Notes under the pieces: model-generated
Told to the model about the DNA's origin: nothing
Databases searched by the model: none
The model's input: the letters and a program-made list of their open reading frames with translations, nothing else
Assembly: GCA_964634365.1 (NCBI GenBank)
Contig: CAZWJU010000001.1
Location: 21,858 to 85,857, forward strand
Direction: 5' to 3'
Length of the DNA: 64,000 nucleotides
Source of the DNA: an uncultured Candidatus Saccharibacteria bacterium
GTDB taxonomy: Bacteria; Patescibacteriota; Minisyncoccia; Phycocordibacterales; UBA9973
Part shown: positions 9,179 through 64,000 of the stretch, one piece after another
How positions within the stretch are numbered: position 1 is the stretch's first letter
Layout: every line of letters begins with the position of its first letter
Program-made: the position numbers and the translations under genes

Positions 9179-10072
9179 TCAAGCTTGTTTTCTCTTAAAC
9201 CAAGTTCTTTGGCGTTTTGCGTATTGCCAAATAGCGTTTTCAAGCTCAAGTAGCATTTGGTCCTTTGAAATCTTTTTTTGTAAGTAAAGCGCAGTATAGC
9301 GACACTCTAGACCTAGATCGTTCATCCGTTTCCAAGATACTCCAGATTCGTGGAGTTTTTTTGCTTCACGGAGCATGCCGAGCTTCATGCGTTCAAGTAG
9401 GCGAGCATGAATATTCTTTTTCAGTAATTCATCGGGTAAATCTATGTATACATCGAATACTTCGTATTTTGGCTTCGATTGGATTTTTGGAACAGAGCCG
9501 ATTGATTTTGCGATTTCTATAGCACGGAGAAGGCGTACTCGGTTTTTTGTATCTATGCTTTTAAATCTTTTTGGATCAAGTTTCTTGAGTGTTTCGCAAA
9601 GTTTCTCGGTTGAATATTTTTCTAGTTTTTTGCGAAGCTCTGTGTTCGGTGGAACTTCAGGCAAGACAATCCCTTTTGTAACTGCATCTATATAAAATCC
9701 TGTGCCTCCGACAAGTATTGGCAAGTTTCCGCGTCCGTGTATTTCGTCGATTGCACGCTCTGCATCTTTTTTAAAATATGAAACAGAATAAACTTTTTTC
9801 GGACTTACGATTGAAAGCATGTGATGGGGGATTCCGGAGGAGAAATAGCTACGAGCTATAAGCTGTGAGCTTTTAATACGGGAACGGTCGCGAGGGGTTT
9901 TGCCTGACAATAAATCCAGACCTTTGTAGACTTGGCGAGAATCAGCGGAAACTATCTCAGAAGTGACGCCATGTTTTTTTAAATACTTTGCCATAGCAAT
10001 ACTAGCTCCAGTTTTTCCTGAAGATGTAGGCCCAGTGATTGAGATTATAGGTTTTTTTACTTGCTTTTTCAT
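9179..10072 (-). CDS. miaA: tRNA dimethylallyltransferase
   Basis: 297 aa. P-loop ITGPTSSGKT. Overall MiaA architecture. Start overlaps a divergent promoter. Confidence 0.85.
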   Translation of the reverse strand: MKKQVKKPIISITGPTSSGKTGASIAMAKYLKKHGVTSEIVSADSRQVYKGLDLLSGKTPRDRSRIKSSQLIARSYFSSGIPHHMLSIVSPKKVYSVSYFKKDAERAIDEIHGRGNLPILVGGTGFYIDAVTKGIVLPEVPPNTELRKKLEKYSTEKLCETLKKLDPKRFKSIDTKNRVRLLRAIEIAKSIGSVPKIQSKPKYEVFDVYIDLPDELLKKNIHARLLERMKLGMLREAKKLHESGVSWKRMNDLGLECRYTALYLQKKISKDQMLLELENAIWQYAKRQRTWFKRKQA

Positions 10073-10080
10073 TATATATG

Positions 10081-10089
10081 TGGTATAAT
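10081..10089 (+). promoter_or_regulatory. extended -10 element (TGGTATAAT) upstream of the 10109 gene
   Basis: TGnTATAAT at 10081-10089, 20 nt upstream of the ATG at 10109. Confidence 0.3.
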
Positions 10090-10108
10090 TCTATGCAAAC
10101 GTTCAATT

Positions 10109-11050
10109 ATGAAAAGCATAAAAAAATATTATTATTTTTTGCCCATCATTTTTTCCATTTTTCTCTCAAGCATCTTTTTTTTAAAAGGAGGTTCGAGTGA
10201 TAAAGATAATGTACCACAAAAAGTTGAGCGCGTAAGTGTTCACCACAGAGAGTACAAAAATCTCAAGCCCGAATTGAGCTACAGCCGTATATATTCAGAT
10301 CCTGAATTTGAGAATTTGAATATGCTGGGTACAGTATCAAAATACGGGGTTTATGGAGATGTTGGGAAAGTTCTCCGCGCCATGCGTTTTGAAAATATTT
10401 CAAACGCAGTTGAGAATAGGTACAATCTTCCGCATCACATGATCCTCGCTATGGTCATAGAAGAATCCAATGGCGTAGATCTCTTACCAAATGGACGCAA
10501 TGATGGAGGTTTCGGTCTCTGTCATATGCAACCAGCCACAGCCCATGAGTTTGGTTTAAAGATTTATGCGGACTGCAAGAAAATGGTCTGCGAAGAGCAT
10601 GCTCTGGAATTGAAAAATATTTTAGAGAAGAATAACTTTGACCGAAGTAAGGTGCAAAAGTATGACGACAGGTTTAACCCGATCTTAAATTTGGATGCAG
10701 TCGGAAGAATGCTGGCAAGTTATATGGACGGTCCAAAAATTAAAGGCTTAGGTCCTGGTCGTACTGCAATATGTAGATACGCTGGCAAATACAACTACAG
10801 CCAGTATTGGGCTGATGTAAGACGTAACATGAACCTGTTGTCTGATGAAGAATTTATGAAAAAAGTTGAGGATGCTTTCAATAAAGCAAATCCAAACTTA
10901 GTCATAAATGGCGAAAGAGGGGATTTCGATTCATATATCGCTACATCAGCGGAGCAGGCCTACAACTACGGCTTGGGAGAGTATTTAAAACTCCCGAAAT
11001 ACCTGCCCAAAAATTCAGAAATCGTTTTGGCAACAATAGATGATTTCTAA
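10109..11050 (+). CDS. secreted lytic-transglycosylase-like protein (SLT-domain-like)
   Basis: Start moved to the MKSIKKYY Met, since the ORF-track start overlaps miaA. N-terminal signal/TM. ES...GGFGLCHMQPATAHEFG resembles the SLT catalytic Glu and GLMQ motif. Confidence 0.45.
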   Translation: MKSIKKYYYFLPIIFSIFLSSIFFLKGGSSDKDNVPQKVERVSVHHREYKNLKPELSYSRIYSDPEFENLNMLGTVSKYGVYGDVGKVLRAMRFENISNAVENRYNLPHHMILAMVIEESNGVDLLPNGRNDGGFGLCHMQPATAHEFGLKIYADCKKMVCEEHALELKNILEKNNFDRSKVQKYDDRFNPILNLDAVGRMLASYMDGPKIKGLGPGRTAICRYAGKYNYSQYWADVRRNMNLLSDEEFMKKVEDAFNKANPNLVINGERGDFDSYIATSAEQAYNYGLGEYLKLPKYLPKNSEIVLATIDDF

Positions 11051-11115
11051 AAATAAAAACGCTCCATATTGGGGCGTTTTCTTTTTTATTGACTATGTGT
11101 TTATAAAAGTGTAGT

Positions 11116-11490
11116 TTGTTTAAAAAACAAGTTATGAGCGAAAAACTTAATAAAGATTTTTTTGAAGGTAAAACACCCAGATATCTTCTGAATGAATTGA
11201 TGACTCCATCAAGACCGATTGATCAAAAGTGGCAGATCATTTTACACATCGAACAAAATTTTATTGATCCCAAAGCAATGCTTGCCGAATCAAAGAGGAA
11301 GCTTGAAGGACAGAATCTGCCGGATTCAGTAATAAAAAATATCTTGTCTGCTCAAAAAACAGCCGTAGATATATCTATGTCGCTTTTGAATCTCGACCAG
11401 ATAAACGGAATGGCAGATATCGATAAAGTTTTCGGCCAGATGAAGGAAGTTCATGGGGAAGAGGCCTATTTGGAGGAGGGTAAAATCTAG
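11116..11490 (+). CDS. hypothetical protein
   Basis: 124-aa ORF with no recognisable motif. Confidence 0.35.
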   Translation: MFKKQVMSEKLNKDFFEGKTPRYLLNELMTPSRPIDQKWQIILHIEQNFIDPKAMLAESKRKLEGQNLPDSVIKNILSAQKTAVDISMSLLNLDQINGMADIDKVFGQMKEVHGEEAYLEEGKI

Positions 11491-33243: not shown

Positions 33244-35769
33244 ATGTTTTTTCGTCGTAGAGCCGGGACGAGTCATATTAAAAATACATGGATAGAAGAT
33301 ATTACGATTTCTGGTAAATCTAAGGTTCTTTCTCTGCGTCCAACATATTTTGTAATACGAATTGATAAACAAAAGATACGCGAACTTTTCAGTAAAGATA
33401 AATATTTTATAGGTTACGGCTTGGTTGTTTTGATTGTACTAGCAGTTTCATCTCTCTCTAATCCTACAAAAGCCGATGTTGTAAATTTCTATCCGACTAG
33501 CTGTCTTGGTGGATGGGAAAATCCTGAAAATGCAACCGGCGCTCCTAGTTTAGATAAAGACGAAAATTTAGAATCTTTCAATGAAGAAAATTCAGCTCGC
33601 ATGCGTGGCACTTCTGATATCTTTTGTGGAGGATTTGAAGGTGAGATACCTCCAGAGGCAGTTGCAAATTCTTTTTCTTTGAGTTTTAGAATATCTGTTG
33701 ACGATGGGTCTGTTGAACATAAAAAAACTGAAGTTCTTGTTGTGCCAGAAACAGAAGAGGTGCGAGTTGGCACTGATAATATAGAGCTCATAGAAATAGA
33801 AAGCTCAGATACAGAAAACCAATCTATTGATCCGACGGAAAACCAAGAAGTGTCTATTGAGCAAGATTCAACAAACACAGCAGAAACAGAGGAAGTTTCA
33901 ATACCAGAGTCAGAGATACCTACAGAAGATGTTCAAGTTGAAGCCCCAGCGCAAGAATCTCCAGAGCCAGAAAATTCACCAGAGTCAACTCCTGATACAA
34001 CAGAGTCTTCCGGTGAGTCTGCATTTTTGAGATTTTTTACAAGGAGAGTTCATGCTGAGGGCGAGGTTGTAACAGATTTAGAAGTTGCTGAAGATATTGT
34101 GTCACCGCAAGTTGAAGAAGCACCAGCTCAAGACACTATTTCAATCGAGGAGTCTGTTGTAGACGAACAATCTGCTGTTGAAAATCAAACTTCAGAACAA
34201 ATAGACACTGGACTAGAAGAGGTAATAAATATAGATAGATCTTCATCTGAAAATGATGAAATCGATTCGAGTGTCTCTGAAGATGGTAACACAGGAGATT
34301 TGGCAGAAGTTGTACCAAATGACGCAATACTTAAAATTATTTACACACTAGACGGAGAAAAATGGGTTTCACTCGGTTACATATCCATGAGCTCTTGGAA
34401 AGATTTGAAATTTAGTATTCCCTTAACAGATTGGTCTAGTGTGTCTAGTTTTCAAATAAAACTAGAACAGATTTCTAGTTACGACGAGAGACCTGTTGTT
34501 TTCTTGGATTCAATTATTCTTTCAGCTGAGTACGACGGACTAGGAGAAGATCCTATCAGACAACCAGACTTTGGAACAGATGTAATTTTGTATGATAAAA
34601 CAGTCGATGACATAAGAGTTATAAAAATACTACGCAACGATATACCAATGATTTGGTATACAAAAATTCCTCCACCAGTCGATTTACCTGAAGGAAAAAT
34701 ATTAGAAGAGCAAGATGGAGTGGAGATTATAATGGCTACAGATGATACTCCTATAGTGGACACAGAAACTCCAACAGATTCTTCTGGCGAGGGAGACGTT
34801 ACGTTGCCTGTGGAAGAGCCTGCGAGCGAGGTATTACCAACAGAAACTATACCTGAAAATCAAGATACGAATTCAACAGAAGAAGGTGCAGAAATAATAT
34901 CTTTTGTTAGAAAAATTAAAAATATTTTTGGTGTATTACAAGTTTATGCCGAAGGTGAAGAAGGCGGAGCTTCCGATGGAGGTTCTTCTGATAGTGGCGG
35001 AGGAGATAGTTCTTCTCAAGGAGGAGATTCATCTAGTACAACAAGCGAGAATGGTTCAGATTCAAGTAGTTCAGAATCTTCTTCTAGTGAATCAAATTCT
35101 TCGTCTGGTGCAGAAGAGAGTGTTAGTTCTATTGATCCTACGGATACAAATAATTCTGAAAATTCTGTTACGGAAGATTCTTTGGTTGAAGAAAACAATT
35201 CTGTTGTATCAGAATCTGATATTACAACAGATAATCAAGTAAGTGATTCAATAAACAAGGTTTTAGATGATATAAATATTGGTGAGGGTGGTAATATTAT
35301 TATTGATACTATTAACAAATACGATAACAGTGATATTAAGATTACAGAAGATCTTTTGTTGAGTACAACAGAAGAAATTATTCCTGGTTTAACACCTATT
35401 TTATATACAGAAGAGCAGATTATGGAAGAGAGGGCGAGTGGTGTGGAGTGGAATTTGGTTGCTGTAGGAGAATCTATTGATACATCAACACCTGTGGATG
35501 TAAGTGGAGGTATAATATTTTGGTTTGGGCCTGGTAAAAGTGTAATTTATCAGTACAACACAGCCTCAGGAGGAATATCTTCTGAAGGTGTCAGTGTAAC
35601 TACTGATTCGGAGGTAAAATATTTAGAGCCAAATGGTGATGTGTCTGAGGTGTCTATAGATATTCAAGATTCTGAAATAATTACACCAAAAGAAGAAATA
35701 GAAAGACAAGAAGCTATATTAGAATCAGAAAATAGTCAGACTAATATTATAGATACTGTTGACATATAA
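33244..35769 (+). CDS. large acidic Ser/Asp/Glu-rich cell-surface protein (N-terminal TM anchor)
   Basis: About 841 aa from the Met at 33244. TM helix GLVVLIVLAVSSL. Long low-complexity acidic tracts (SDGGSSDSGGGDSSSQGGDSSS...). No enzymatic motif. Confidence 0.5.
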   Translation: MFFRRRAGTSHIKNTWIEDITISGKSKVLSLRPTYFVIRIDKQKIRELFSKDKYFIGYGLVVLIVLAVSSLSNPTKADVVNFYPTSCLGGWENPENATGAPSLDKDENLESFNEENSARMRGTSDIFCGGFEGEIPPEAVANSFSLSFRISVDDGSVEHKKTEVLVVPETEEVRVGTDNIELIEIESSDTENQSIDPTENQEVSIEQDSTNTAETEEVSIPESEIPTEDVQVEAPAQESPEPENSPESTPDTTESSGESAFLRFFTRRVHAEGEVVTDLEVAEDIVSPQVEEAPAQDTISIEESVVDEQSAVENQTSEQIDTGLEEVINIDRSSSENDEIDSSVSEDGNTGDLAEVVPNDAILKIIYTLDGEKWVSLGYISMSSWKDLKFSIPLTDWSSVSSFQIKLEQISSYDERPVVFLDSIILSAEYDGLGEDPIRQPDFGTDVILYDKTVDDIRVIKILRNDIPMIWYTKIPPPVDLPEGKILEEQDGVEIIMATDDTPIVDTETPTDSSGEGDVTLPVEEPASEVLPTETIPENQDTNSTEEGAEIISFVRKIKNIFGVLQVYAEGEEGGASDGGSSDSGGGDSSSQGGDSSSTTSENGSDSSSSESSSSESNSSSGAEESVSSIDPTDTNNSENSVTEDSLVEENNSVVSESDITTDNQVSDSINKVLDDINIGEGGNIIIDTINKYDNSDIKITEDLLLSTTEEIIPGLTPILYTEEQIMEERASGVEWNLVAVGESIDTSTPVDVSGGIIFWFGPGKSVIYQYNTASGGISSEGVSVTTDSEVKYLEPNGDVSEVSIDIQDSEIITPKEEIERQEAILESENSQTNIIDTVDI

Positions 35770-38700
35770 CACACAAACAATGTATTTTTTGAAACCGAAA
35801 AGAAAAATAAAATCATTATTTAAGATATTTAATTTTAAAAAAATATTGGTTTTTATTTTTACAATAATGTTTTTATCCAGTGGTCTTACAGACTTGGTTT
35901 TGATGCGTGTGCTAGAAAAGAGATCAGACGATCCTGTTATGAAAAGTGCTGAAGCTGCTACCTATCAATTTTTCCCTACAGATGTAACAGTTGAAACTGG
36001 TACAGAGCAAACAGTTACTTCTCAGACCGCTGCTGCGGCTGAAGGTACAAACTTGGGTTCGCACACAGCGTTGCTAGGAAACGATGCTTTTCATTGGGCT
36101 GTTGCCTCGACTACTTCGGGTGTGTCTATGATCACAACTGTCGGTGGGGTAAACCTAAACGGTGCGAATAAGCTCGACATAGGTACGGAAATAGACTTAG
36201 ATGCAACTATTCCAGTTATAAGTTTTCAGATTTGTGACTGGAGAGATTCGACTAGTGTGAACAATGCCGCAGACGCAAACTGTACAACAGGTGGATGGAG
36301 GACTATCAATACAAAGAGCTTGACCAATACCGATGTGACTATTACTGGTACATCTACACTTCAGCTACGTTGGCAGATATACAACGGATATTTTTATAAT
36401 GGTTCAACGAATGGAGGAACACTGATTGACACACCGCTTGCAAACTTCGTTAGTGATTCAAATGAAATAAAAATTCGCTACTATGCAACAACAAATACCA
36501 CTTCTGTTGTGTCTATAGATTACCTCACAGTTTTTGCATATATCGACTCTATATACTATGCAAATTCATATTCAGATCTAACTGATGGTTCTGGTGGAAC
36601 AGAAAACGGAATAATCCCAAACACCATACCGGTTGTGAACACGGCCACGGCTTTTGCTTCGGCTGGTACAAACGACAACACTCGTTTCAGTGTCGCAGTA
36701 ACAACTCCTGCTAACAACCCAGACTTCTATTTGTCGTATAAAAATGTAAAACAGTATACAGGTATGAACACTATACTTTTAGGAACTTCGGTGAGTTGTA
36801 ACTCCGCTACTACAATACAAGCATATATTTATGACTTTACTGCAACCACCTGGGACACACTAGGCTCTGCTGTGTCGTGTACCACATCGGATGTGGATTA
36901 TCGTTTTGCTCACAACACAGTAGCTGACGCAGGCTTTGTTTTGAATGATTTCATATCAGACGGAGAGATTCGTATAAGATGGACCACAACTGCCGATGTT
37001 TCAAACAACGGTATAAGACTCGATTGGCAATATGTGATGCTCGGCTCTGTAAACTCGGATTCATCTTTGTGTGAAATATCTTTTGGTACAGGAACTGCAA
37101 CAAACTGCACAAACACTCGCGGTATGGATACAAACGGGTCTACAACATCTTTTGATATTGCAGGAGAGGATGAATCTGCAACTATGGGTACAGGAGAAGC
37201 GAATTCATTTTATGTGGCTGATACTGACCAAGACACGACTGTAGAAGAGGGTGTTTCTGCAAACATATCTTTTCCTATAACTGTGCCTACAAACGCTCAA
37301 GTGGTGGGTATAAACTGGGCGAGTCGGGAGACTTCGCGCAGTACAGGAACAACACAGGTTATAAATAGTGTTAGAGATTATTCTGGTTTTACCTCTACAG
37401 CAGGTGGATGGACCGATGTTGGTGCCGCTGTAAACGCCACAACTCAAACATATCAGGATACAGTAACACAAGGAGCGGTACTTTTGTGGGGACAACAAAT
37501 AAACCCAGAAGATTATGTAGATACAGTAAATGGTCGCATGAATATGCGTTTACGTACCTCGACATCTGGTGCAACAACTGACAACTCTACAACTGCTTGG
37601 GACTTTGCGATGATGTCTATACAGTGGATAGAAGATTCGTATAATCCTACAGTGACTTATCAATTTGCTCCAACAGGACAAACTCTTGTTACAGGCACTG
37701 ATACACAAGCAAACAACACTATTGCCGCTGGTGCAAACGGTGCAAACACTGGTTCGTGGAAGGGAACTCTTGCTGACGACAACAGGCATTGGGAGCTTAC
37801 TGGTACAGCTAGTGGTATAGATGTTCAGCTTTATATGAATGGTGTAAAGATAAATGGAGCTAATACAATTATTGTTCAATCTGAAATAGACGTCGACGCA
37901 ACTGCACCAGCACTTTTGATCCAGATATGTGATTGGGTGTCCACGACAAGTGTTGACCATGCAGCTGACGCCCAGTGTACTGGTGGTGGCTGGAGAACAC
38001 TTAACTCGCGTGATGTGACTGTTACTCCGACAACTGCAACCGCATATACATGGAATGTATACGATGGTAAATGGTCAAATGGTTCCAACACTCCGGTTTC
38101 TACTCCACTTTCAAACTTTGTTACAACGGATTCAAACAAGAGAGTTCTTATAAGATACTACTCAACAACAAACGCAACAACAGCAAGTAACTTCGCAATA
38201 GATTATTTGCGTATTTTCCCTGTTATTAATCCTGTGTACGAAGCAGGCGACGCAACTGCTCTTACAAACTCTTTTACAGGAGATTACACAAGCACAAACA
38301 CTGTGACTCAGGGTGCAGCTGACAACACAGACCTTCAGTGTCTTGGTACAACAGGAGGTCCAGACTGCTATTTGTCATTTTTTAATGTAAAAACATACCC
38401 GAGCATGAACACTATACTTGCACGATCGGAGTTTGCTTGTTCGGTTGGGGGTACTGCGCCTGAAGTCAAGATGGCATTTTACAATTTCACGACAGCAGGA
38501 TGGACAGATATCATAAATGAAATCGCTTCGTGTAGCACCACTGACACTGTTCGCATAGGAGCGGTGAATAATATTACAATAGGTGATTATGTACACAATG
38601 GTGAAGTAAGACTTAGATACTATCGTTCAAGTGGAACTGATACTGGTGCAATACAAATAGACTATGCATATATTATGGCTGGTACTACGAACTCTGATTC

Positions 38701-39796
38701 TGGGGCGACAAATTGCTTCATATCTTTTGGTACACTTTCTGCAAACGATTGTACTGCAGCAAGGACTATAAACATGAACGGTACGACAAACAATGGTACT
38801 ACTTGGCAGATCCTCGCTGAAGATGAAGATACTGATCGTGGTATCGGAGAGGCAAATACTTATTATCCTTTTGATACCGATGCGGATGCTGCGGCAACAG
38901 AAGAAGGTTCAGGATCGCACACCAAATTTTCTTTGAGTGGAGAACCAACGTACGGATCTATTACAGGAATATTTTTTTCATCTCAGCATATGGCTGGTAC
39001 TGGTGGAACCGTGGCTCTCGGTATTGCAGACTATTCGGGATATAACACGGCTGCCGCAACGATCGGAGGTTTTATAGCGCTCGGTGCAACCGCTACGACG
39101 GCTCTTGTATATACCGACAATATTACTGTAGGTACTACTGTTTCTGGTGGTGCTGCCGGATATATGACTAATCCAGATGATTTATTGAATACATCTGGCA
39201 ACGAAGCGTGGTTTCGTCTACGTACCTCGACTGATGGTAGCTCAGCAACAAACGCGGTTAGACAATGGGATTTTGCCATGATTGGGCTTCAGTGGGTAGA
39301 AACAGAAGATAGAACAATTTCGTTTGATATTTCTGATACAACTATAGGGTTCGGTCCTCTTACTACTTCGAATGCTCGTTATGCTACTGGAGATGCAGCT
39401 GGCAGCGACACGGAAGTAGAGGCGCATACAATATCAGCATCTTCTAGTGCAGCGGGCGGATATACAATAACTGTGCAAGGTAACACACTTACAAGTGGTG
39501 CGAACACAATAGATGCGATCGGTGGAACAAACACGGCTTCTAGTGCGGGGACAGAGCAGTTTGGAATAAAGGCATCTGTGTCAGGTGTCTCAAATTACCA
39601 TACCGTTGATTCTACATACTCAGGATCAGGATATGGATACGATGGAACTTCAAGTGCTTCAACTTTCGCAACACAATCCGAAGGCGACGGTTTTACTTCA
39701 ACATATTCTGTTAGTTATATTGCGAACATGTCTACAGGTACAGAGACTGGGGCATACTCTACAGATTTAAACTACATATTAACTGGTAATTTCTAG
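35759..39796 (+). CDS. giant (1345 aa) Thr/Gly/Asn-rich surface protein: N-terminal TM/signal, two tandem roughly 490-aa homologous modules, C-terminal WxL-like module
   Basis: Module 1 (about nt 36149-37630) and module 2 (about 37837-39310) align throughout (ICDW...CTTGGWRT, RYY.TTN, RLRTSTSG...WDFAM..QW). The last roughly 165 aa are homologous to the C-terminal halves of the ORFs at 39853 and 41036, and the protein ends ...LNYILTGNF. Confidence 0.6.
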   Translation: MTYNTQTMYFLKPKRKIKSLFKIFNFKKILVFIFTIMFLSSGLTDLVLMRVLEKRSDDPVMKSAEAATYQFFPTDVTVETGTEQTVTSQTAAAAEGTNLGSHTALLGNDAFHWAVASTTSGVSMITTVGGVNLNGANKLDIGTEIDLDATIPVISFQICDWRDSTSVNNAADANCTTGGWRTINTKSLTNTDVTITGTSTLQLRWQIYNGYFYNGSTNGGTLIDTPLANFVSDSNEIKIRYYATTNTTSVVSIDYLTVFAYIDSIYYANSYSDLTDGSGGTENGIIPNTIPVVNTATAFASAGTNDNTRFSVAVTTPANNPDFYLSYKNVKQYTGMNTILLGTSVSCNSATTIQAYIYDFTATTWDTLGSAVSCTTSDVDYRFAHNTVADAGFVLNDFISDGEIRIRWTTTADVSNNGIRLDWQYVMLGSVNSDSSLCEISFGTGTATNCTNTRGMDTNGSTTSFDIAGEDESATMGTGEANSFYVADTDQDTTVEEGVSANISFPITVPTNAQVVGINWASRETSRSTGTTQVINSVRDYSGFTSTAGGWTDVGAAVNATTQTYQDTVTQGAVLLWGQQINPEDYVDTVNGRMNMRLRTSTSGATTDNSTTAWDFAMMSIQWIEDSYNPTVTYQFAPTGQTLVTGTDTQANNTIAAGANGANTGSWKGTLADDNRHWELTGTASGIDVQLYMNGVKINGANTIIVQSEIDVDATAPALLIQICDWVSTTSVDHAADAQCTGGGWRTLNSRDVTVTPTTATAYTWNVYDGKWSNGSNTPVSTPLSNFVTTDSNKRVLIRYYSTTNATTASNFAIDYLRIFPVINPVYEAGDATALTNSFTGDYTSTNTVTQGAADNTDLQCLGTTGGPDCYLSFFNVKTYPSMNTILARSEFACSVGGTAPEVKMAFYNFTTAGWTDIINEIASCSTTDTVRIGAVNNITIGDYVHNGEVRLRYYRSSGTDTGAIQIDYAYIMAGTTNSDSGATNCFISFGTLSANDCTAARTINMNGTTNNGTTWQILAEDEDTDRGIGEANTYYPFDTDADAAATEEGSGSHTKFSLSGEPTYGSITGIFFSSQHMAGTGGTVALGIADYSGYNTAAATIGGFIALGATATTALVYTDNITVGTTVSGGAAGYMTNPDDLLNTSGNEAWFRLRTSTDGSSATNAVRQWDFAMIGLQWVETEDRTISFDISDTTIGFGPLTTSNARYATGDAAGSDTEVEAHTISASSSAAGGYTITVQGNTLTSGANTIDAIGGTNTASSAGTEQFGIKASVSGVSNYHTVDSTYSGSGYGYDGTSSASTFATQSEGDGFTSTYSVSYIANMSTGTETGAYSTDLNYILTGNF

Positions 39797-56410: not shown

Positions 56411-56485
56411 GGCCCTATCGTCTATCGGTTAGGACACATCCTTCTCAAGGATGGAAGCGCGGTTCGATTCCGCGTAGGGTCACCA
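56411..56485 (+). tRNA. tRNA-Glu (anticodon CTC), CCA encoded
   Basis: GGCCCTATCGTCTATCGGTTAGGACACATCCTTCTCAAGGATGGAAGCGCGGTTCGATTCCGCGTAGGGTCACCA. Confidence 0.85.
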
Positions 56486-56637
56486 TCACGTGCTAGCACG
56501 AGAAGCATATAAAATAATACTTTTTGACGATCAAAAATTTGCACCCCTCTGAGAATCGAACCTTCTTTGGCGCCGCTGTTAAAAGGCTTGGCTTACCCGA
56601 AATATATACACTGTGCCCCTTAAGGTATAATACATCT

Positions 56638-58461
56638 ATGTGGATTTCAAAAGTAACAATAGAGAATTTTAGAAAAGCAACAGCCTTCATGCCTATAGAA
56701 GTAGAGCTTAATGATGGTCTTAATCTTTTAGTTGGCGAAAATAATGTAGGTAAAACTTGTGTAGCTGAAGCGCTCGCTCTTGCGCTGGGATATGGAAATT
56801 CAGATCGAAATGTTTTTTTAAAGGAACAGGATTTTAACGATCCAGCAAAACCCATCAAAATCAGCATAATGTTCGATGGACTATCGACTGATCAAGAAGC
56901 TGCTTTTTTACAAGCGCTTGTAATTGAAAAATATTCTGAATCTGAAGAAGAAAGTGGCACAGGAGAAGTTGTTAGGGCCAACTTCCAATTTCTGTTTGAA
57001 CTAAATAATAGAAAAATAAGCAATAGAGTGCTTTGCGGGGAAAATTTTGAGGTAAGTGCCCCTATGGACTTAATTGGCAACCTTAAGGTGACTTATTTGC
57101 CTGCATTACGCGATGCAAACCAAGAGTTTAAGCCCGGGTACAAAAGTAGAATTGGAAAAATATTGAAATCCCGCTTTGCGGGTGGTGATCAAGAGGTGAT
57201 AGAACAAATTTTCGAAAGAGCTAATATCGAAGCACTCGCACATCAAGGAACAGCAAATCCAGTTAGTGCGCTTGCAAAAAAGGCAAACACAAGCATTGAA
57301 AAACTTTCTTTATATGGCACCAACAACAAAATAAAAATGGAGTTTGTTGAACAGGAGTTCAATCGGATTATTGCAAATATATCAATGAAAACTGATGCTG
57401 GTTTAGACATAGAAACAAACGGACTTGGTTACAATAATTTAATATATATTGCAACAATAATCACGGAGCTTGAGCATGACCATAAAGAGGAGCCACACTC
57501 ATACAACTGCCTACTAATTGAGGAACCAGAAGCCCATCTGCATCCTCAGCTCCAAACATTACTACTTGATTTTGTTCAATCTAATTACCCAGAGATTCAA
57601 GTAATTCTAACTTCACACTCCCCTACACTAGTCGCAGAAACTGAATTTAAAAACTTAAGTGTCATGTCCACTACGCCAACTGGAGTAGTAAGTAGGCGTG
57701 TTGCTAACTCTTCAATATCTGGAGATCATGAAATATTTCTTCAACGCTTTCTTGATGTCACAAAATCTCAATTGTTTTTTGCTAGAAACATAATTTTTGT
57801 TGAGGGAATTACTGAAGCATTACTACTAAAGTTATTTTGGGATCTTTATTACACACTTGATGACGAGAAATTTTCTCGCCAAGGAATTGAGATCGTAAAT
57901 ATTAATGGTGTTGCTTTTAGTCCTTATGCAGGATTAGTAAAAGGAATTTTTGCAAAATCAAATATCAAATGTACAATCTTGACTGACGATGATCGAGGTA
58001 GCGGAATAGCATGTCCAGTAAATTCAAGATTCAAAGATGGTGACAGTATCAAAAATACTGAAGTAATTGAGACTATTTTTGCAAATAGTCCACTCTCGAG
58101 CAGGGCTAAAAAGCTTAGCGATGAGGTTAAGGAGATTCAAAATGAGGGTTTTAATAATTTATCGATTTTCTTGGCAAGAAAAACTTTTGAGGTTGAATTT
58201 GCCCTCGCTAACATTGAAAACAAAACAATGTTGGAAGACCTTGCTGGTATGACTAGAGGTTCTTTAGTTGGGATGAGTGAAATCGGTGCAGCAGTAGAGT
58301 TTTGGAAACAAATTGTCGAGAAAGATATTAAAACTGAAGTTAGTACTATGATTGCAAAGAAAATCCTCAATAAGGAAACGGTGTCATGCCCTCAGCACTT
58401 TATTAATGCATTTGAATTTATCAGACCAAAGAAAAAGCAATCTCAAAATGGAACTAACTGA
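56638..58461 (+). CDS. gajA: OLD-family ATPase/Toprim nuclease, Gabija GajA-like
   Basis: Start moved to MWISKVTIENFRK. N-terminal ABC-type ATPase (Walker A GENNVGKT, Walker B/D-loop LLIEEPEAHLHP). C-terminal Toprim (IIFVEGITE catalytic Glu, ILTDDDRGSG DxD). About 607 aa. Confidence 0.75.
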   Translation: MWISKVTIENFRKATAFMPIEVELNDGLNLLVGENNVGKTCVAEALALALGYGNSDRNVFLKEQDFNDPAKPIKISIMFDGLSTDQEAAFLQALVIEKYSESEEESGTGEVVRANFQFLFELNNRKISNRVLCGENFEVSAPMDLIGNLKVTYLPALRDANQEFKPGYKSRIGKILKSRFAGGDQEVIEQIFERANIEALAHQGTANPVSALAKKANTSIEKLSLYGTNNKIKMEFVEQEFNRIIANISMKTDAGLDIETNGLGYNNLIYIATIITELEHDHKEEPHSYNCLLIEEPEAHLHPQLQTLLLDFVQSNYPEIQVILTSHSPTLVAETEFKNLSVMSTTPTGVVSRRVANSSISGDHEIFLQRFLDVTKSQLFFARNIIFVEGITEALLLKLFWDLYYTLDDEKFSRQGIEIVNINGVAFSPYAGLVKGIFAKSNIKCTILTDDDRGSGIACPVNSRFKDGDSIKNTEVIETIFANSPLSSRAKKLSDEVKEIQNEGFNNLSIFLARKTFEVEFALANIENKTMLEDLAGMTRGSLVGMSEIGAAVEFWKQIVEKDIKTEVSTMIAKKILNKETVSCPQHFINAFEFIRPKKKQSQNGTN

Positions 58462-60160
58462 TAGACAAACAGAAGCCGTGCAACAGAATGGTTTATTTAC
58501 TCTCGCCGCTTGCCCAGGAAGTGGTAAGACTGTAGTTGTTGCCAGCCGAATAAAACGCCTTATTGATTCAGGTGATCTCCAGCCTTATCAAGGTGTTGCG
58601 GCAATCTCATTCACTAGAATTGCAAGAGACTCTATACAAGAAACCTTTAGGGATATGAATGGCCTACCCTCTAAACATCCACATTTTATAGGCACATTTG
58701 ATAGTTTTTTAAATCAATATGTTTTTTTACCTTTCTCACACCTAATCTCTAATAGCGGTAAACCTATGACAATTCTAGATGTCGAATCTACATGGTTGTC
58801 AGAAAAGATTTTTCCTATGCTTAAATCTGAAAAAATAATTGCGGAAAAAGTTTTTTACAAAGTTGATGGTTCATTTGGTTACACAGGAAGAGAATTACCT
58901 CAAGAAAAACTAGTGCTTATTAAAAAGAAAACGAAAGAATTAAATTTAGCAACACAGTCTGATGTAACTTATTATTCTTTAGAAATACTGAGAAATAACC
59001 CAAAGATACTACAAGCTCTTCTAACGAAGTTTCCTTACATCATTGTCGATGAGGCTCAAGATTGTTCAGATATACAGATGGAAATAGTTAACACACTTGT
59101 TACTGCGGGTCACTGTGAAATAATGCTCTCTGGAGATCCTTATCAGTCTATATACGAATGGAGGGACGCAAAACCTAGTCTTTTTATACAAAAAACAAAC
59201 GAAAAAGGATGGGCAAGTCTTTCCTTAAACCATAATCAAAGAAGTGGACAAGCTATATGTGATGTATTGAATAAGTTTGTAGAACCCAGCAATATAACTT
59301 CTGATCCTTCTCGTACGGAACTAGTTGATGCAGAGGTTGCTTTCATTGAATCTGCGGACCCTGTTTATATCCTAGAACGTTTTCTTGAACTAACTGAGGC
59401 TAAGGGAATATCCACTTCCCCAGAAAACATCGCAGTTTTATACAGAGCACACGGATCTGCAATGAATACTAAAACAACCATTGACTATGTTAATTCTTGG
59501 TGGGCTGGATCAATAGATAAAGTTGAAATGCTTGGAACAACGGTATTACCAGTTAAAATTGCTTATTTAATGAAAACTGGTAGCTACGCTGAAGCCTTTA
59601 AATTTTCTCAGCATTTTTTTTATTTTCAAATGCATAAAGAATTACTACGGAGTACCGACGAAAATAAGTTATTATTTGAAAATATTGAAGTAAAGAAAAT
59701 TTTATGGAAGTTTTGTCGTACCATACCATCACTTAAACAAGACTTAAACCAATGGATTGAAAAAACAAATTCTCTTATAGCTGCTACAGTTGAAGCTTTT
59801 TCGAACCTTGGTTTAAATATTGTTGGTAAGCAGGTTTCAATAAAAAAGAAACTTGGCTTTAACGAAAATCCAAATATCTGGGAAGTTCTCTCCGAACGTG
59901 GAATTGAAAGAGACGATATTTTGATTGAGAATATTCATCAAATTAAAGGAAGATCTTTTGACGCTGCTTTAATTTATGTAGAGTCATCAGCTAAAAAAGC
60001 TATGTCAGCGCAAAAAATAAAAAACATACTTGCTTCGAAAGAAATGTTTGATACAGTAACAGCTGAAGACGGGAGATGTTTTTATGTAGCTGCCTCAAGA
60101 GCAAAAAGACTTCTTTGTATTGCTACTACAGATAAAGAGCTGATTCAAGCTCTCCTATAG
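58448..60160 (+). CDS. gajB: UvrD/PcrA-like SF1 helicase, Gabija GajB-like
   Basis: Start at MELTDRQTEAV, overlapping the gajA stop by 14 nt (atggaactaactga). Walker A AACPGSGKT, motif II IIVDEAQD, motif VI YVAASRAKRLL. About 570 aa. Confidence 0.75.
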   Translation: MELTDRQTEAVQQNGLFTLAACPGSGKTVVVASRIKRLIDSGDLQPYQGVAAISFTRIARDSIQETFRDMNGLPSKHPHFIGTFDSFLNQYVFLPFSHLISNSGKPMTILDVESTWLSEKIFPMLKSEKIIAEKVFYKVDGSFGYTGRELPQEKLVLIKKKTKELNLATQSDVTYYSLEILRNNPKILQALLTKFPYIIVDEAQDCSDIQMEIVNTLVTAGHCEIMLSGDPYQSIYEWRDAKPSLFIQKTNEKGWASLSLNHNQRSGQAICDVLNKFVEPSNITSDPSRTELVDAEVAFIESADPVYILERFLELTEAKGISTSPENIAVLYRAHGSAMNTKTTIDYVNSWWAGSIDKVEMLGTTVLPVKIAYLMKTGSYAEAFKFSQHFFYFQMHKELLRSTDENKLLFENIEVKKILWKFCRTIPSLKQDLNQWIEKTNSLIAATVEAFSNLGLNIVGKQVSIKKKLGFNENPNIWEVLSERGIERDDILIENIHQIKGRSFDAALIYVESSAKKAMSAQKIKNILASKEMFDTVTAEDGRCFYVAASRAKRLLCIATTDKELIQALL

Positions 60161-61531
60161 CTTTAAATTAACTTTTTTATTAATCAATACAATTTCACTT
60201 TTTAAACACATCATAAATTTCCGTTTTTCTTCGATAGACCCCTCAATCAAAATAAACTTTGCGTAATTCCGTATATCAATATCTTTCACTGTTATTGTTG
60301 TCTTAGTTCCTAACAGCATTTGTTCAAATTTCTTGAATCTTTGCACTTCGGCTGTGATCTTCTCTTTCATTGGTAGAGTTTTAATTTCTAAATCATCAAC
60401 AAGTTCTTGTAATTGAGATATCAGGTCTTCTTCGTTGATGAATCCGCAAGGACAGTCCTGGTCTCTTGTCCTTGTGCATTTGTAGTAGACATAGCGGTTC
60501 ACATTACCGTTCTTCTGGTGCTTAAATTTCTCGTCTGCTGTGATTCCTGAACCACACAAACCACAGGTCATAATCTTGGTGAAAGCAAATTCTTTCTGTT
60601 CTGACCTTGGTGTTAAGGTTTGGTTTTTTATTTGTATTTGCACTGCATCATACAAATCTTTGGTGATAATCGGTTCATGAGATCCGTTGTACCAATTGCC
60701 AGATCCAATAGGATATTCAAACTTTCCATAATAAAAGGTGTTGGCAAGTATCTTGTATATATTCCCAAGGCTAAGATGCATATTTGTTTCCGTTCTGAAA
60801 TTAATCTCTTCTTTCAACCATAAAAATAACTTTCTTCCACTCCAACCATCATATCCAACTTTTTCAAACATTTGTTTTATGATCGGTGCACGCTCTTTAT
60901 CTATTACTGATTCACATTTCTGATCTATTCTTTTGAACTTTGTATATCCAGTTGGTGGTCTACATGGCCACAGTCCCATTTCCACTCTAGCCCTTAGTCC
61001 TCGCTTCACATTGATACTCTTGTTGTCATTCTCGAGCTTGGCTTGAGAACATAGGATCATTAAAAGAAATTTTTCATTCGGTGAGTTTGAAAACGTCTGT
61101 CCGTATGTCTGTATATGAATCAATTTTTTCTGATCCATAAGATCAACTAAAGAACCAAGGTCTCCTGCATTTCTTGAAAGTCTATCAGGTGCCCAAGTCA
61201 GGATTCCGTTATATATACCTTTTGCAATTTCTCCGAGCAACTCCTTAAATACAGGTCTTTGTCCTGATTCCTTTGCTGAATGTGATTCTCGTTTTATATC
61301 TACCATATTAAGCTTTAAACGTTCTGCAATAGCAGTCATTTCGTTAATCTGTGAATCTATAGACAAAGCCTGTTGCTCATCAGATTCGGTTGATTTTCGA
61401 GCATATAGACAGTACCTAATCCTTGTTTCCGTTATTGATATATTGTTTGCGATTTTTCCTATAGCATTCGTCTCCATATACATATTAATGACGCAGAAAG
61501 GGTCTTTTGCTAAGGCCTCGCTTGTTGGCAA
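60155..61531 (-). CDS. large serine recombinase (resolvase catalytic domain + recombinase domain + zinc ribbon)
   Basis: 458 aa. YARKSTESDEQQALSIDSQ catalytic Ser region. RLSRN... recombinase domain. C-terminal CxxC...C ribbon. The true start may be the internal MYMETN at 61477. Its 3' end abuts the gajB stop convergently (cta/tag). Confidence 0.8.
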   Translation of the reverse strand: MPTSEALAKDPFCVINMYMETNAIGKIANNISITETRIRYCLYARKSTESDEQQALSIDSQINEMTAIAERLKLNMVDIKRESHSAKESGQRPVFKELLGEIAKGIYNGILTWAPDRLSRNAGDLGSLVDLMDQKKLIHIQTYGQTFSNSPNEKFLLMILCSQAKLENDNKSINVKRGLRARVEMGLWPCRPPTGYTKFKRIDQKCESVIDKERAPIIKQMFEKVGYDGWSGRKLFLWLKEEINFRTETNMHLSLGNIYKILANTFYYGKFEYPIGSGNWYNGSHEPIITKDLYDAVQIQIKNQTLTPRSEQKEFAFTKIMTCGLCGSGITADEKFKHQKNGNVNRYVYYKCTRTRDQDCPCGFINEEDLISQLQELVDDLEIKTLPMKEKITAEVQRFKKFEQMLLGTKTTITVKDIDIRNYAKFILIEGSIEEKRKFMMCLKSEIVLINKKVNLKL

Positions 61532-61830
61532 CTTGTTGGTAACTTCCTCTGTGATTTTGAGGGTCTGCGATATGATCGTCTGGAATAATAGCGGTTGAAA
61601 TGCTATTATTTATTTACAAGTTAATAGCAAGTAGTAGCCTAAACCATTGGTAATTCCTATCAATGGCATGGCGAAAAGTCCTTGGAAGATAAAGAACCCA
61701 TCATGTGGGGTTTGTCTTCCAAGGCCGTATCGGGAAACTGGTACGGAGGGTTAAAACCCTCGACCATGTGGTGGGCTTTTTGTATACAATTTAGTCCATC
61801 CAAAAATTATTAATACTAAATAAAATAAAT

Positions 61831-62478
61831 ATGGATGAAAAAAATAGTACTCCAGAGAAAATAAAAACATTTAATTTGAGAAACTTCTCTGTTTGGTTTT
61901 TGGGTATAGTTTTGCTTTTTGCAGGAATTGGAATGATGAGCGAAAGCATCTTTGCTGGAATTTTAGCAATAATCTCGGCTCTCATAGTATTACCTCCAAC
62001 AGTAAAGATTATGAAGGATAAATTTAAATTTCAGATATCCAGAAATCTTACTGCTATTATTATCATTGTTTTGATCGGTATTGCTACATCTATAAATTCA
62101 AGTGTTGAGAAAAATACTATAACAGATACAACCTCTGATACATCTATTCAGACAACTGAGCAATCTGAAACAACACAGGGTAATAAACCTGTTTCCTCAG
62201 AAAAAACATATCAAGAAGTATTCTCTTTTAGTGGATCAGGAGCAAAGAAGTCTGAACCATTTACCATAACTGGTAGCAGATTTAAGATTGCATATGATTG
62301 CAATGGAAGTCTTTGCCAAGCATTTCTGTATAAAGTTGGAAGCGATATAATGTCAGATCTAATAATAAATAGCAGTGGTCCAGTGAAAGACGAAACAATA
62401 ACTTACGGAAGTGGTGAATACTATATTCAGTCAAACACAGTTGGTACGTATACTATGACTGTTTATGATTACAAATAG
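61831..62478 (+). CDS. hypothetical membrane protein with Thr-rich extracellular region
   Basis: 215 aa, 3 TM helices, Thr/Ser-rich linker, Cys-containing C-terminal domain. Confidence 0.35.
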   Translation: MDEKNSTPEKIKTFNLRNFSVWFLGIVLLFAGIGMMSESIFAGILAIISALIVLPPTVKIMKDKFKFQISRNLTAIIIIVLIGIATSINSSVEKNTITDTTSDTSIQTTEQSETTQGNKPVSSEKTYQEVFSFSGSGAKKSEPFTITGSRFKIAYDCNGSLCQAFLYKVGSDIMSDLIINSSGPVKDETITYGSGEYYIQSNTVGTYTMTVYDYK

Positions 62479-62888
62479 CCCTTCTTTCTTTTCTCCTCCT
62501 CCTCTTCTTCCTCATCGGCTGTCTCTTTTGCTAGATCCAAAAGAGACAGTTTTTCTCCATTGTTATATGAAGCAGGTTTATCAACCTTAAATTTAGGGTG
62601 TCTTCTTTTCATGTAACAGTTCATTGCTTGCCAATGTCTCTCATTTATTAAAGACATTAATTTTGATTCGACGAGATCATCAAAGAATTTATCACCCTCT
62701 TCGATTGCGTCTTCAACATCATTGTTAAATTTTATATCTTCTTTCATCCATCTATAAACAGTGGATCGAGCTATTCCCATTTTCTCGCATACCAGTTGTA
62801 TGATAGGTGCTTGCTTTAGGTGTTCCAGAAACTCTAACTTTGTCTTTTTAATTCTCGCCTGACTATTAGGCCTTGGTGATTTTTTCAT
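62469..62888 (-). CDS. phage terminase small subunit-like HTH DNA-binding protein
   Basis: 139 aa. N-terminal HTH (QLVCEKMGIARSTVYRWMKED). Acidic C-terminal tail (EEEEEEEKRKK). Resembles TerS / phage transcriptional regulators. Confidence 0.45.
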   Translation of the reverse strand: MKKSPRPNSQARIKKTKLEFLEHLKQAPIIQLVCEKMGIARSTVYRWMKEDIKFNNDVEDAIEEGDKFFDDLVESKLMSLINERHWQAMNCYMKRRHPKFKVDKPASYNNGEKLSLLDLAKETADEEEEEEEKRKKGYL

Positions 62889-64000
62889 TGGAAATTTTCT
62901 TAAATCTATTAATTATTAACTGACAGAAGATCGGTTCTTTTTCACACATATATGCTGTTCTGCTCAGTTGTTCACATGCGATCATAATGCTCCCTGATCC
63001 TGCTGTAAGGTCTAGTACAACATCTCCAGCCTTGCTACATCTCTTAAGAGCCTTTTCGTGTAGCAGAGGACTCTTTTGTGTTGGATGTTCATATTCACTA
63101 CTTGGAAGCCGTTTAACTGTCCATATGTTCAGATAATCATTAATTTCGTCAATAAGATTATTGCCGTTAGTCATCTCTTTGTTCATAATCTCATTAAGGT
63201 TATTTACATCCTTCGCTAAGTATGGAGAACCAATGGTTCCGTACACACAAAACTCTGTTGCTTTATTAAAAGCAGTTTGAGGTGTCGGTGATGCGTTATT
63301 TTTGAGCCATATACAAAGTCTCTTTGAATCTATATTGAGTTCTTTGTATAAAGTTTGAAACAGCCACACATATCGCTCATCAGTCCAATAGAATACATGG
63401 CAATTCTTTTTCGCTACTGAAATAGCGTTTTTCATCATCTTTCTTATGAATTCCGCGTACTCAGTATCAGACTTATTGTCGTCAGTTGTTCCTCCATAAT
63501 TCTTTTTACTTTTCTTCCCACCTACACCTTTGTTGTAACTTAAGTTTATGTTGAAAGGTGGATCTTGATTTATCATATCTACCAAGACTCCATTCGTAAG
63601 TTTCTTAACTGTGTTTGGATCCGTCGCGTCACCACATACCAATCTATGTCTTCCTAATTGGAACACATCACCAACTTTAATGTCGGTTTTCTTTATCTTC
63701 TGTAATTCTTTTTCTTCATCCCAAGAATCTCCAACAACTTCATCTTTCTTATCGAATATGTTTGATAGTTCAAAACTATCGAAACCTGACTTTAGTAATA
63801 TATCTACATCGAAATTATCATGAAGTATATCCCAATCCCAATCTCCGTGAATTGCATTCGAGGAGAGGAGGTACTGATCATACTCTTGCTTCGTTAGTTT
63901 TCTATTTGGAACTCTAACTTCAATCTCTTCTTCGCCTCGATTAAGTAATTTAAGAACCATCAATCTCTGATGACCAGCGATCACCTTATTGTCAGTGTCC
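62866..64000 (-). CDS. ParB-like nuclease domain fused to N6-adenine DNA methyltransferase (partial, N-terminus beyond window)
   Basis: ParB-box-like VIAGHQRLMVLK at the N-terminal end of the visible frame (GTG at 63984, with the frame still open to the window edge). DPPF motif IV (INQDPPFN). C-terminal SAM motif I (VLDLTAGSGS), i.e. beta-class N6A/N4C MTase order. Confidence 0.65.
   Translation of the reverse strand, partial: DTDNKVIAGHQRLMVLKLLNRGEEEIEVRVPNRKLTKQEYDQYLLSSNAIHGDWDWDILHDNFDVDILLKSGFDSFELSNIFDKKDEVVGDSWDEEKELQKIKKTDIKVGDVFQLGRHRLVCGDATDPNTVKKLTNGVLVDMINQDPPFNINLSYNKGVGGKKSKKNYGGTTDDNKSDTEYAEFIRKMMKNAISVAKKNCHVFYWTDERYVWLFQTLYKELNIDSKRLCIWLKNNASPTPQTAFNKATEFCVYGTIGSPYLAKDVNNLNEIMNKEMTNGNNLIDEINDYLNIWTVKRLPSSEYEHPTQKSPLLHEKALKRCSKAGDVVLDLTAGSGSIMIACEQLSRTAYMCEKEPIFCQLIINRFKKISNEKITKA

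Follow-up and report, generated by a model that had tools for sequence, protein, structure and literature searches.

The analysed stretch of contig CAZWJU010000001.1 (64,000 nucleotides (nt) in all; hereafter the window) carries near its end a tRNA-Glu gene and, immediately 3′ of it, a putative Gabija anti-phage system together with genes that we interpret as belonging to a small integrative element. The two Gabija-like genes, gajA and gajB, are co-oriented and encode an OLD-family ATP-binding cassette (ABC) ATPase joined to a Toprim nuclease and a UvrD-like superfamily 1 (SF1) helicase, respectively. According to the coordinates of the open reading frames (ORFs), they overlap by 14 nt (58448–58461). 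A gene for a large serine recombinase (LSR) faces gajB, and the 3′ ends of the two overlap by 6 nt. Farther on are a copy of the LOOT RNA, a gene for a predicted membrane protein, a gene for a helix-turn-helix (HTH) protein resembling small terminase subunits (TerS), and a gene in which a ParB-like nuclease domain is combined with a DNA methyltransferase (ParB-MTase) and which runs past the window end (Table 1).

An earlier reading of the window, made from the letters alone (the sequence-only reading), had described a gajA-like gene of about 607 codons and a gajB-like gene of about 570 codons with a 14-nt overlap 3′ of tRNA-Glu, followed by a convergent LSR, a membrane protein, a TerS-like HTH protein and a ParB-MTase. 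We confirmed the pair at the coordinates in Table 1, and ORF calls, Pfam and PHROG matches show that the other four genes are all present as well. Two features had been missed, the LOOT RNA and an 18-nt motif directly after the tRNA. The interpretation that we favor, with a probability of roughly 0.75, is that gajAB is cargo of a small LSR-encoding integrative element located at tRNA-Glu in the chromosome of a Paceibacteria-type member of the candidate phyla radiation (CPR), and that it would act there as a Gabija defence system.

Table 1. Features of the island; positions refer to the window unless a Logan contig is named
Feature	Position	Strand	Remarks
tRNA-Glu (anticodon CUC)	56411–56485	+	ARAGORN; Rfam tRNA 53.6 bits; 3′ end is the left edge of the element
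Conserved motif CGTGCTAGCACGAGAAGC, probable element terminus	56489–56506	+	18 nt; contains the 12-nt palindrome CGTGCTAGCACG
gajA, class 2 OLD-family ABC ATPase + Toprim nuclease	56638 (ATG)–58461	+	607 aa
gajB, UvrD-like SF1 helicase/NTPase	58448–60160	+	570 aa
Large serine recombinase (LSR), integrase	60155–61531	−	458 aa; convergent with gajB
LOOT RNA (Rfam RF03000)	61636–61761	+	
Predicted membrane protein	61831–62478	+	215 aa; hydrophobic N-terminal segments
TerS-like HTH protein	62469–62888	−	139 aa; backbone gene
ParB-like nuclease domain + N6/N4 DNA methyltransferase	62866–64000, on to ~64155 past the window	−	
SpvB/RHS protein	L001 2–4285 (− in L001) = window ~64392 to beyond 68675	+	divergent from ParB-MTase

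A divergent Gabija-type gene pair

Both proteins are recognized by PADLOC hidden Markov models (HMMs) for Gabija. The GajA model PDLC00071 covers residues 1–590 of the first protein (E-value 3.5e-106, 354 bits), whereas the competing models Old (1.8e-36, 124 bits) and AriA (6.8e-35, 119 bits) are far weaker. The GajB model PDLC00138 covers residues 2–563 of the second (3e-106, 354 bits). Together with the overlapping UvrD-like partner gene, the two matches support the original assignment of the pair to Gabija; grouping with non-Gabija OLD families had been named as the outcome that would speak against it, and the best HMM is GajA, not Old or AriA. Pfam domains found in GajA are AAA_15 (4e-35), AAA_21 and OLD-like_TOPRIM (3e-12), and those in GajB are UvrD-helicase (1.5e-34) and UvrD_C (6e-9).

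The catalytic motifs of GajA are invariant in an alignment of 25 homologues. They comprise Walker A (GENNVGKT, G33–T40, with K39), a signature-like motif (L263–L268), the Walker B/D-loop (LLIEEPEAHLHP, L292–P303), the H-loop (TSHSP, 325–329, with H327) and the Toprim residues E389, G424 and D450/D452. In Bacillus cereus GajA, the active site is formed by E379, G409 and D432/D434 (Antine et al. 2023, PMC10781630), and the motifs of the window protein map to K35, E379 and D432/D434 of that protein. In the profile alignment to the B. cereus GajA chain, which ends at residue 446, VEG faces IEG and TDDD faces TDND. The part of the protein spanning residues ~355–589 aligns end to end with the C-terminal regions of the class 2 proteins BpOLD and XccOLD (1.8e-20). 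In this comparison (6NK8, 6NJV; Schiltz et al.), the Toprim and helical domains are aligned and the E, DxD, E..E and K residues are kept; both reference proteins come from Proteobacteria, have been solved only for their C-terminal regions and have no mobile-element context described.

GajB, in turn, has the motifs Walker A (CPGSGKT, 22–28), DEAQD box (201–205), III (GDPYQSIY, 229–236), IV (NHNQRS, 261–266), V (496–505) and VI (VAASRAKR, 547–554). The presence of a neighboring gene for a UvrD/PcrA-like helicase is what defines class 2 OLD proteins. Three homologue contexts were examined (GajA 63 %, 49 % and 40 % identical), and each has an overlapping gene for a UvrD-like partner; one of the three represents Candidatus Gracilibacteria, another CPR lineage. 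Among 5.8 billion proteins searched, the nearest relatives of GajA are 63 % and 60 % identical to it, followed by those at about 50 %.

The AlphaFold2 (AF2) model of GajA (pLDDT 86.5, pTM 0.80), which shows a helical insertion within the ATPase domain (residues ~160–285), has GajA as its top match in PDB (8u7i_A, E-value 8e-23) and also matches 8x5i_B (TM 0.61/0.66). Three comparisons, on the other hand, count against the Gabija assignment. Structure-based alignments with B. cereus GajA give an identity of only 16–19 %; the class 1 protein TsOLD (6P74) outscores B. cereus GajA on the profile of the GajA clade (1.8e-31 vs 3.6e-19); and the fold search places TsOLD (E-value 2e-22) about equal to or better than GajA. 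Because GajA and class 1 TsOLD score alike, we rejected the fold search as a discriminator of OLD classes, and the modeled fold of GajA is taken to support OLD family membership and no finer class. The class 2/Gabija assignment is therefore based on the PADLOC models, the C-terminal match to BpOLD and XccOLD, and the conserved helicase partner.

The behavior of TsOLD in both searches, coupled with the fact that among the PDB sequences matched by GajB (UvrD and B. cereus GajB) E. coli UvrD is the best, could also be taken to mean that the pair has nothing to do with defence and is a housekeeping, class 1 OLD, PARIS AriA or RecF/UvrD-like core repair module. We regard this as highly improbable and as largely refuted by the PADLOC scores of both proteins and the conservation of the overlapping helicase partner in homologues. 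Moreover, as described below, the nearest relative lacks the pair at the syntenic site, and the slot in which the pair sits is one otherwise filled by restriction-modification (R-M) systems.

In comparison with the Gabija system of B. cereus VD045 (8SM3, 8U7I, 8J4T; PMC10781630), the window has the same co-oriented arrangement of an OLD ATPase–Toprim gene followed by a UvrD-like SF1 helicase gene. The Toprim E/G/DxD residues, the ABC motifs, the GajB Walker A and the DExQD box are all conserved, and the GajA folds match over the full length with a TM of about 0.6. The differences are that GajB has 570 residues in the window and 494 in B. cereus, with a sequence match confined to residues 177–340, that different PADLOC sub-models apply, and that the window pair resides in a CPR host. 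Judged by these features, gajAB is a bona fide but divergent Gabija-type system with all catalytic motifs intact.

A related arrangement was observed in one of the homologue contexts (L093, 1–18194; JGI Ga0265297_10005685), where a 49 %-identical GajAB pair is part of a defence island together with a type III R-M system, RmuC, two DUF2924-associated large serine recombinases and another pair of methyltransferase and HTH genes. Gabija of this clade therefore recurs beside serine recombinases.

The tRNA-Glu junction and the recombinase family

Core genes in the window include those for IF-2, ClpB, TopA, LysS and two penicillin-binding proteins (PBPs), the latter with MraZ/RsmH. Relatives of the FtsI-type PBP were found only in metagenome-assembled genomes (MAGs) of Candidatus Paceibacterota/Paceibacteria (82, 55 and 52 % identity). 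In addition, a 1345-aa protein (35759–39796, +) has a C-terminal CPR Pam-pilus pilin domain (NCBIfam NF058581, 5.9e-19). These sequences support a Paceibacteria-type CPR bacterium as the host, in line with the CPR-like bacterium suggested earlier. The gene for the 1345-aa protein coincides with the only clear rise of G+C in the window (0.42–0.43 at ~36–42 kb).

The left boundary of the island was placed at the 3′ end of the tRNA because synteny with the closest relative having the same flank (L002) stops exactly there. This relative, in which the PBP is 82 % identical, keeps the order rsmH – ftsL – PBP – 187-aa gene – tRNA-Glu(CUC). Its DNA is near-identical to that of the window as far as the final tRNA base; starting with the very next base, the two sequences are unrelated. 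The tRNA of L002 is followed by small metabolic genes and trxB, with neither Gabija nor LSR. The absence of the island in L002 and the exact stop of synteny support the view that a mobile element is integrated beside tRNA-Glu, as the sequence-only reading had proposed, and they argue against core genome present in all relatives, the alternative that it had named. None of the L002 genes downstream of tRNA-Glu has a match in the window or in its extension by a Logan contig (L001, 100 % identical, reaching 4.7 kb past the window end), and the right-hand junction of an empty site is not reconstructable.

The LSR has an intact C-terminus and the Pfam domains Resolvase (9e-19), Recombinase (3e-11) and Zn_ribbon_recom (4e-9), and it matches the integrase family phrog_95 (5.3e-62). 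Its catalytic-serine motif (YARKST, S47) is invariant among relatives. A single metagenome scan returned more than 564 of these, from which we kept 80 loci with an LSR identity of 56–84 %; relatives that are 56–59 % identical are found on four contigs listed as viral in IMG/VR. The elements were then compared by clustering ORFs over 85 LSR-bearing loci, with a flank of 10 kb per locus. In two IMG/VR loci (L008, 2233–3570, and L009, 7338–8675), two neighboring ORFs of 225 + 215 aa together make up the LSR homologue. The gene could have decayed into a pseudogene, or its in-frame stop could be read through by means of an alternative genetic code. Such codes are used by some CPR lineages.

A tRNA gene downstream of the LSR is present in 40 loci, and in all 40 the first such gene lies on the opposite strand, at a distance of 92 bp to 9 kb. 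Where it is tRNA-Glu(CUC), the gap to the LSR amounts to 116 bp (L071), 3.2 kb (L015), 3.7 kb (the window), 6.0, 7.1 or 7.7 kb. Directly after the tRNA, the LSR loci have the same motif as the window or a related one, irrespective of tRNA identity (Glu, Ser, Trp, Gln, Arg, Lys) and cargo size. The motif begins 3 nt after the 3′ end of tRNA-Glu in the window and 3–6 nt after the tRNA across loci. One of its forms is ..CGTGCTAGCACGAGAAG.., and related forms include ..GTGAGACCGACCGAGAGG... An equivalent motif follows the first downstream tRNA in L013, L015, L017, L020, L028, L036, L040, L048, L053 and others. In its simple form, the motif is present in 33 of the 40 tRNA flanks of LSR loci and in none of 31 control tRNA flanks, nor was it found in the element-free L002. 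From its sequence and placement, the motif at 56489–56506 is probably the terminus of the element or a candidate recombinase-binding/att-junction site.

Similarity between close LSR relatives reaches the LSR stop codon and ends there. Since, in addition, the motif at the tRNA is conserved, we treat the segment between the LSR stop and the motif as an internal cargo slot. Its size ranges from 0 to 9 kb across loci and equals 3.65 kb in the window, where it holds exactly gajAB. The slots of 37 loci contain 114 ORFs, mostly genes of type I, II and III R-M systems. The order of tRNA, terminus, cargo and LSR is thus recurrent, while the cargo varies.

A distant Gabija-like pair was also noticed in L034, a 182-kb contig (5986–9920, −; 25–29 % identity to the GajA and GajB of the window). 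It sits between LOOT (5767–5883) and the LSR (9989–11269), which is a different slot, and the element family therefore has at least two cargo positions.

The gajAB pair could alternatively be an independent cassette, or a remnant of another island, that landed between tRNA-Glu and an older LSR element, so that the present arrangement would have arisen by tandem accretion. The 3′ ends of tRNA genes are general integration hotspots, the cargo is wholly different between close LSR relatives, and Logan contigs of SRR12486993 break at two positions that flank the cassette, all of which would fit such a history. However, the motif of the LSR family is located between the tRNA and the cargo, in cargo-bearing and cargo-free loci alike, and the cargo is therefore internal to the unit delimited by motif and LSR. 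Moreover, gajAB is flanked by no integrase, transposase or repeat of its own. Accretion is thus an unlikely origin of the arrangement. As to the contig breaks, L007 stops at 56458, inside tRNA-Glu, and L001 and L006 stop at 60235, within the LSR gene and 80 nt from its 3′ end; these stops may mean coexisting variants with different cargo or mere branching of the assembly graph.

LOOT RNA beside the recombinase gene

LOOT has been listed as a metagenome-derived small RNA (sRNA; Rfam RF03000; Weinberg et al. 2017), and the literature that could be searched yielded no statement on its genomic context. The copy in the window matches the Rfam model over its full length (model positions 1–121) with 92.7 bits, well above the gathering score of 46.4, and has the same multi-hairpin structure. 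The LSR gene, on the opposite strand, starts 105 nt away from it, and the gene for the 215-aa membrane protein, on the same strand, follows after 70 nt.

Using a covariance model built from the window copy and refined on its matches, we detected LOOT in 45 of the 85 LSR loci, the others being in many cases short contigs. Control loci yielded no match to the model, and the window no further copy. Examples are L010 (9704–9826), L011 (11379–11508), L017 (9772–9898) and L022 (9758–9874), with 40 more loci. In 25 loci, LOOT occupies the other strand, no more than about 250 nt upstream of where the LSR begins; in five it lies just downstream on the same strand. The structure is well conserved: over 46 sequences, 92.8 % of cells are paired, compared with 34–40 % in slid controls, and compensatory (double) changes are seen in 39 of 41 pairs.

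In 34 of the 45 loci, an ORF on the same strand starts within about 100 nt downstream of LOOT. Many families are represented among these ORFs, which are often predicted to have transmembrane segments. For the 215-aa protein of the window we obtained no match in Pfam, PHROG or PADLOC, and C-terminal homologues are encoded in the same position in L023, L016 and L056. What distinguishes the copies of this family from LOOT as described in Rfam is that they consistently neighbor an LSR of a single family and immediately precede a variable gene. Such a placement suggests a leader that acts in cis and is borne by a mobile element, rather than an sRNA standing on its own.

The nature and significance of the proposed carrier element

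Related loci share a backbone of only 4–6 genes. On the LSR strand, it consists of ParB-MTase (42 loci), the TerS-like HTH protein (40 loci), a large terminase subunit (TerL) of ~490 aa (37 loci) and the LSR. TerL of L012, for example, matches phrog_38 (1.5e-75). The subclade of the window (L013–L018, LSR identity 76–84 %) is without TerL and has a small gene on the opposite strand instead, just as the window does. Upstream of ParB-MTase, the only recurrent gene, which accounts for 9 of 111 ORFs and occurs in 9 relatives, encodes a divergent S24/LexA-CI-like repressor, the other ORFs being scattered defence and host genes. Neither these 111 upstream ORFs nor the 114 downstream ORFs include virion structural genes, save for two upstream ORFs matching a 'tail protein' PHROG.

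In the window copy, the TerS-like protein matches Pfam HTH_Tnp_1_2 (7.7e-8), at least five PHROG small-terminase families (1e-8 to 5e-4) and, weakly, the Sf6 terminase. Its homologues directly follow ParB-MTase in about 40 LSR loci, with TerL coming next in other loci. ParB-MTase contains the Pfam domain N6_N4_Mtase (5.6e-25), and the sequence of L001 brings it to its full 429 aa and shows a ParB-like N-terminus (phrog_498, 1.1e-81; phrog_620, 7e-22). The next gene encodes a secreted SpvB/FG-GAP/RHS-YD repeat protein of more than 1428 aa with a polymorphic-toxin-type architecture, for which the other 85 loci have no homologue. In L030, L039, L040 and L047, a conserved non-coding stretch (..TGCGTAGTAAAAAGNAGA..ATCGCCTAAAA.CCATGCCTATTCCGCGCAAGAAATA..) is located ~60–200 nt upstream of the ParB-MTase start and could be an RNA, a packaging site or a regulatory site. 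It belongs to the TerL-containing subclade, and no shared motif was found in the window.

The sequence-only reading had called the island prophage-like and had pointed to phage structural genes as something to look for downstream. A complete or recently decayed temperate prophage, with Gabija as a lysogenic-conversion (moron) cassette, would account for the order ParB-MTase–TerS, with which phage late operons commonly begin, and for the PHROG matches of the integrase (5e-62), TerS and, in relatives, TerL, as well as for the listing of relatives in IMG/VR. The region from 56.4 to 68.7 kb, however, has no TerL, portal, capsid or tail genes, and the SpvB/FG-GAP/RHS gene comes directly beyond ParB-MTase. 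In relatives, what TerL directly precedes is the LSR and the element end, not a portal gene, and the two 'tail protein' matches are the only ones among the upstream ORFs. Given also that relatives have only the small backbone in common, 'prophage-like' appears too strong, and we consider a prophage distinctly unlikely.

A TerS/TerL backbone without structural genes suggests instead a phage satellite, similar to phage-inducible chromosomal islands (PICIs) or their minimalist counterparts (PICMIs). Such a carrier would be induced and packaged by a helper phage of CPR bacteria, with Gabija and R-M genes as accessories, and would refine our explanation rather than replace it. The compact backbone (~5–7 kb) with its ParB-MTase, TerS, LSR and, in part of the relatives, repressor and TerL is consistent with this idea, as are the lack of structural genes on either side, the four related viral-listed contigs and the position next to a tRNA with defence cargo, which is also seen in known satellites and tycheposons. 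Conversely, no replication module or helper-sensing gene was recognized, TerL and the repressor are missing from the window copy, and no helper phage is known. Furthermore, the 10-kb flank per locus leaves room for a larger prophage with highly variable early genes. We therefore see the satellite as a possible but rather doubtful identity of the carrier.

The Gabija systems studied so far cleave phage DNA with a 4:4 complex in which GajB is docked onto a GajA tetramer (PMC10781630), and they act preferentially on DNA ends to which no RecBCD is bound (PMC12407980). In our favored explanation, that of gajAB as the cargo of an integrative element, the region is the putative tRNA-proximal part of that element. 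Its backbone would run, in the direction of the LSR, from ParB-MTase through the TerS-like HTH gene and the LOOT-led membrane-protein gene to the LSR. The element would end at the terminal motif beside tRNA-Glu(CUC), the LSR having presumably integrated it at the 3′ end of the tRNA, and it may still be mobile. The slot between the LSR stop and the motif would carry a single operon, gajA–gajB. By analogy with the systems of B. cereus and Pseudomonas, the GajA tetramer would bind GajB to form a 4:4 nuclease–helicase complex that would be restrained by cellular nucleotides. Infection would perturb these nucleotides, and the complex would then cut phage DNA or unprotected ends, protecting the cell and the carrier element alike.

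Several observations on the carrier weigh against this explanation. To our knowledge, no large serine recombinase is known to target tRNA 3′ ends. A simple attL hybrid is hard to reconcile with the palindromic motif, which appears to lie entirely on the element side. The window and the 4.7 kb beyond it, which together reach 68.7 kb, contain neither a tRNA fragment nor a second att-like copy of the motif, and therefore the element is not delimited and its excision is hypothetical. G+C of the island (~0.35–0.37) is close to that of its surroundings (0.36–0.40), with no break in G+C or skew found at the island. Finally, since its subclade is without TerL and the CI-like repressor, the window copy may be degenerate. 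The suggestion that attR might be recognized as a repeat of the tRNA-Glu 3′ end was likewise not borne out, as neither direct nor inverted repeats, whether of that end or of the terminal motif, occur in 56.3–68.7 kb; an nhmmer profile built from 41 termini lacked the power to locate a second end. The far boundary, which had been thought to lie beyond the window, may be just past the window end and not far beyond. A T-loop-like stretch (56540–56562, −) was considered as a tRNA remnant and rejected, because Rfam returned nothing and BLAST only an 11-mer of the T-loop (E-value 0.12). A promoter and terminator scan was uninformative, with counts equal to the shuffled expectation.

The family has much in common with tycheposons, PICIs and P4-like hotspots (Hackl et al., bioRxiv 10.1101/2020.12.28.424599): insertion at tRNA 3′ ends, a small recombinase backbone, variable and often defence-related cargo near the integrase, TerS-type genes without structural genes, and a streamlined host. 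It differs in its recombinase, which is an LSR, whereas 910 of the 937 elements of Hackl et al. have tyrosine recombinases. Other differences from tycheposon-type elements are that in the window family no partial tRNA repeat was detected and no replication genes were recognized, and that its backbone adds ParB-MTase, usually TerL, and the LOOT RNA. Our literature search on serine-recombinase elements of CPR bacteria found no description, and both the carrier family and its link with LOOT appear undescribed in the literature that could be searched. Tentatively, we propose a very widespread family of compact CPR elements that has not been described so far. Its members would use an LSR to occupy many tRNA 3′ ends and would combine ParB-MTase/TerS/TerL with a lack of virion genes, a combination that would make them candidate satellites of CPR phages. 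They would also swap entire defence systems in a fixed slot bounded by the LSR stop and the terminus, and carry LOOT as the leader of a variable membrane-protein gene.

CPR bacteria, and Paceibacteria especially, have already been reported to have a high density of defence systems (PMC12259885). Since, in addition, Gabija is common and defence genes are expected in tRNA islands, the cassette taken alone amounts to routine annotation. The gajAB pair belongs to a known defence family, and the apparently new part is the carrier family with its LOOT link. Nonetheless, the window shows that a host with a minimal genome encodes a divergent GajAB, in which GajA shares less than 20 % identity with the GajA studied so far. 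RecBCD activity has been proposed to protect self DNA from Gabija (PMC12407980), which raises the question of RecBCD-type self-protection for CPR hosts of Gabija. The link between LOOT and one LSR family makes the role of this RNA testable, and the proposed element family, if real, would give LOOT its first biological context. The carrier itself is a possible route by which streamlined, uncultivated bacteria may swap immune modules via a fixed slot. If the proposal holds, the 'pan-immune' gene flow that has been reported for Paceibacteria would have in these elements one of its main vehicles.

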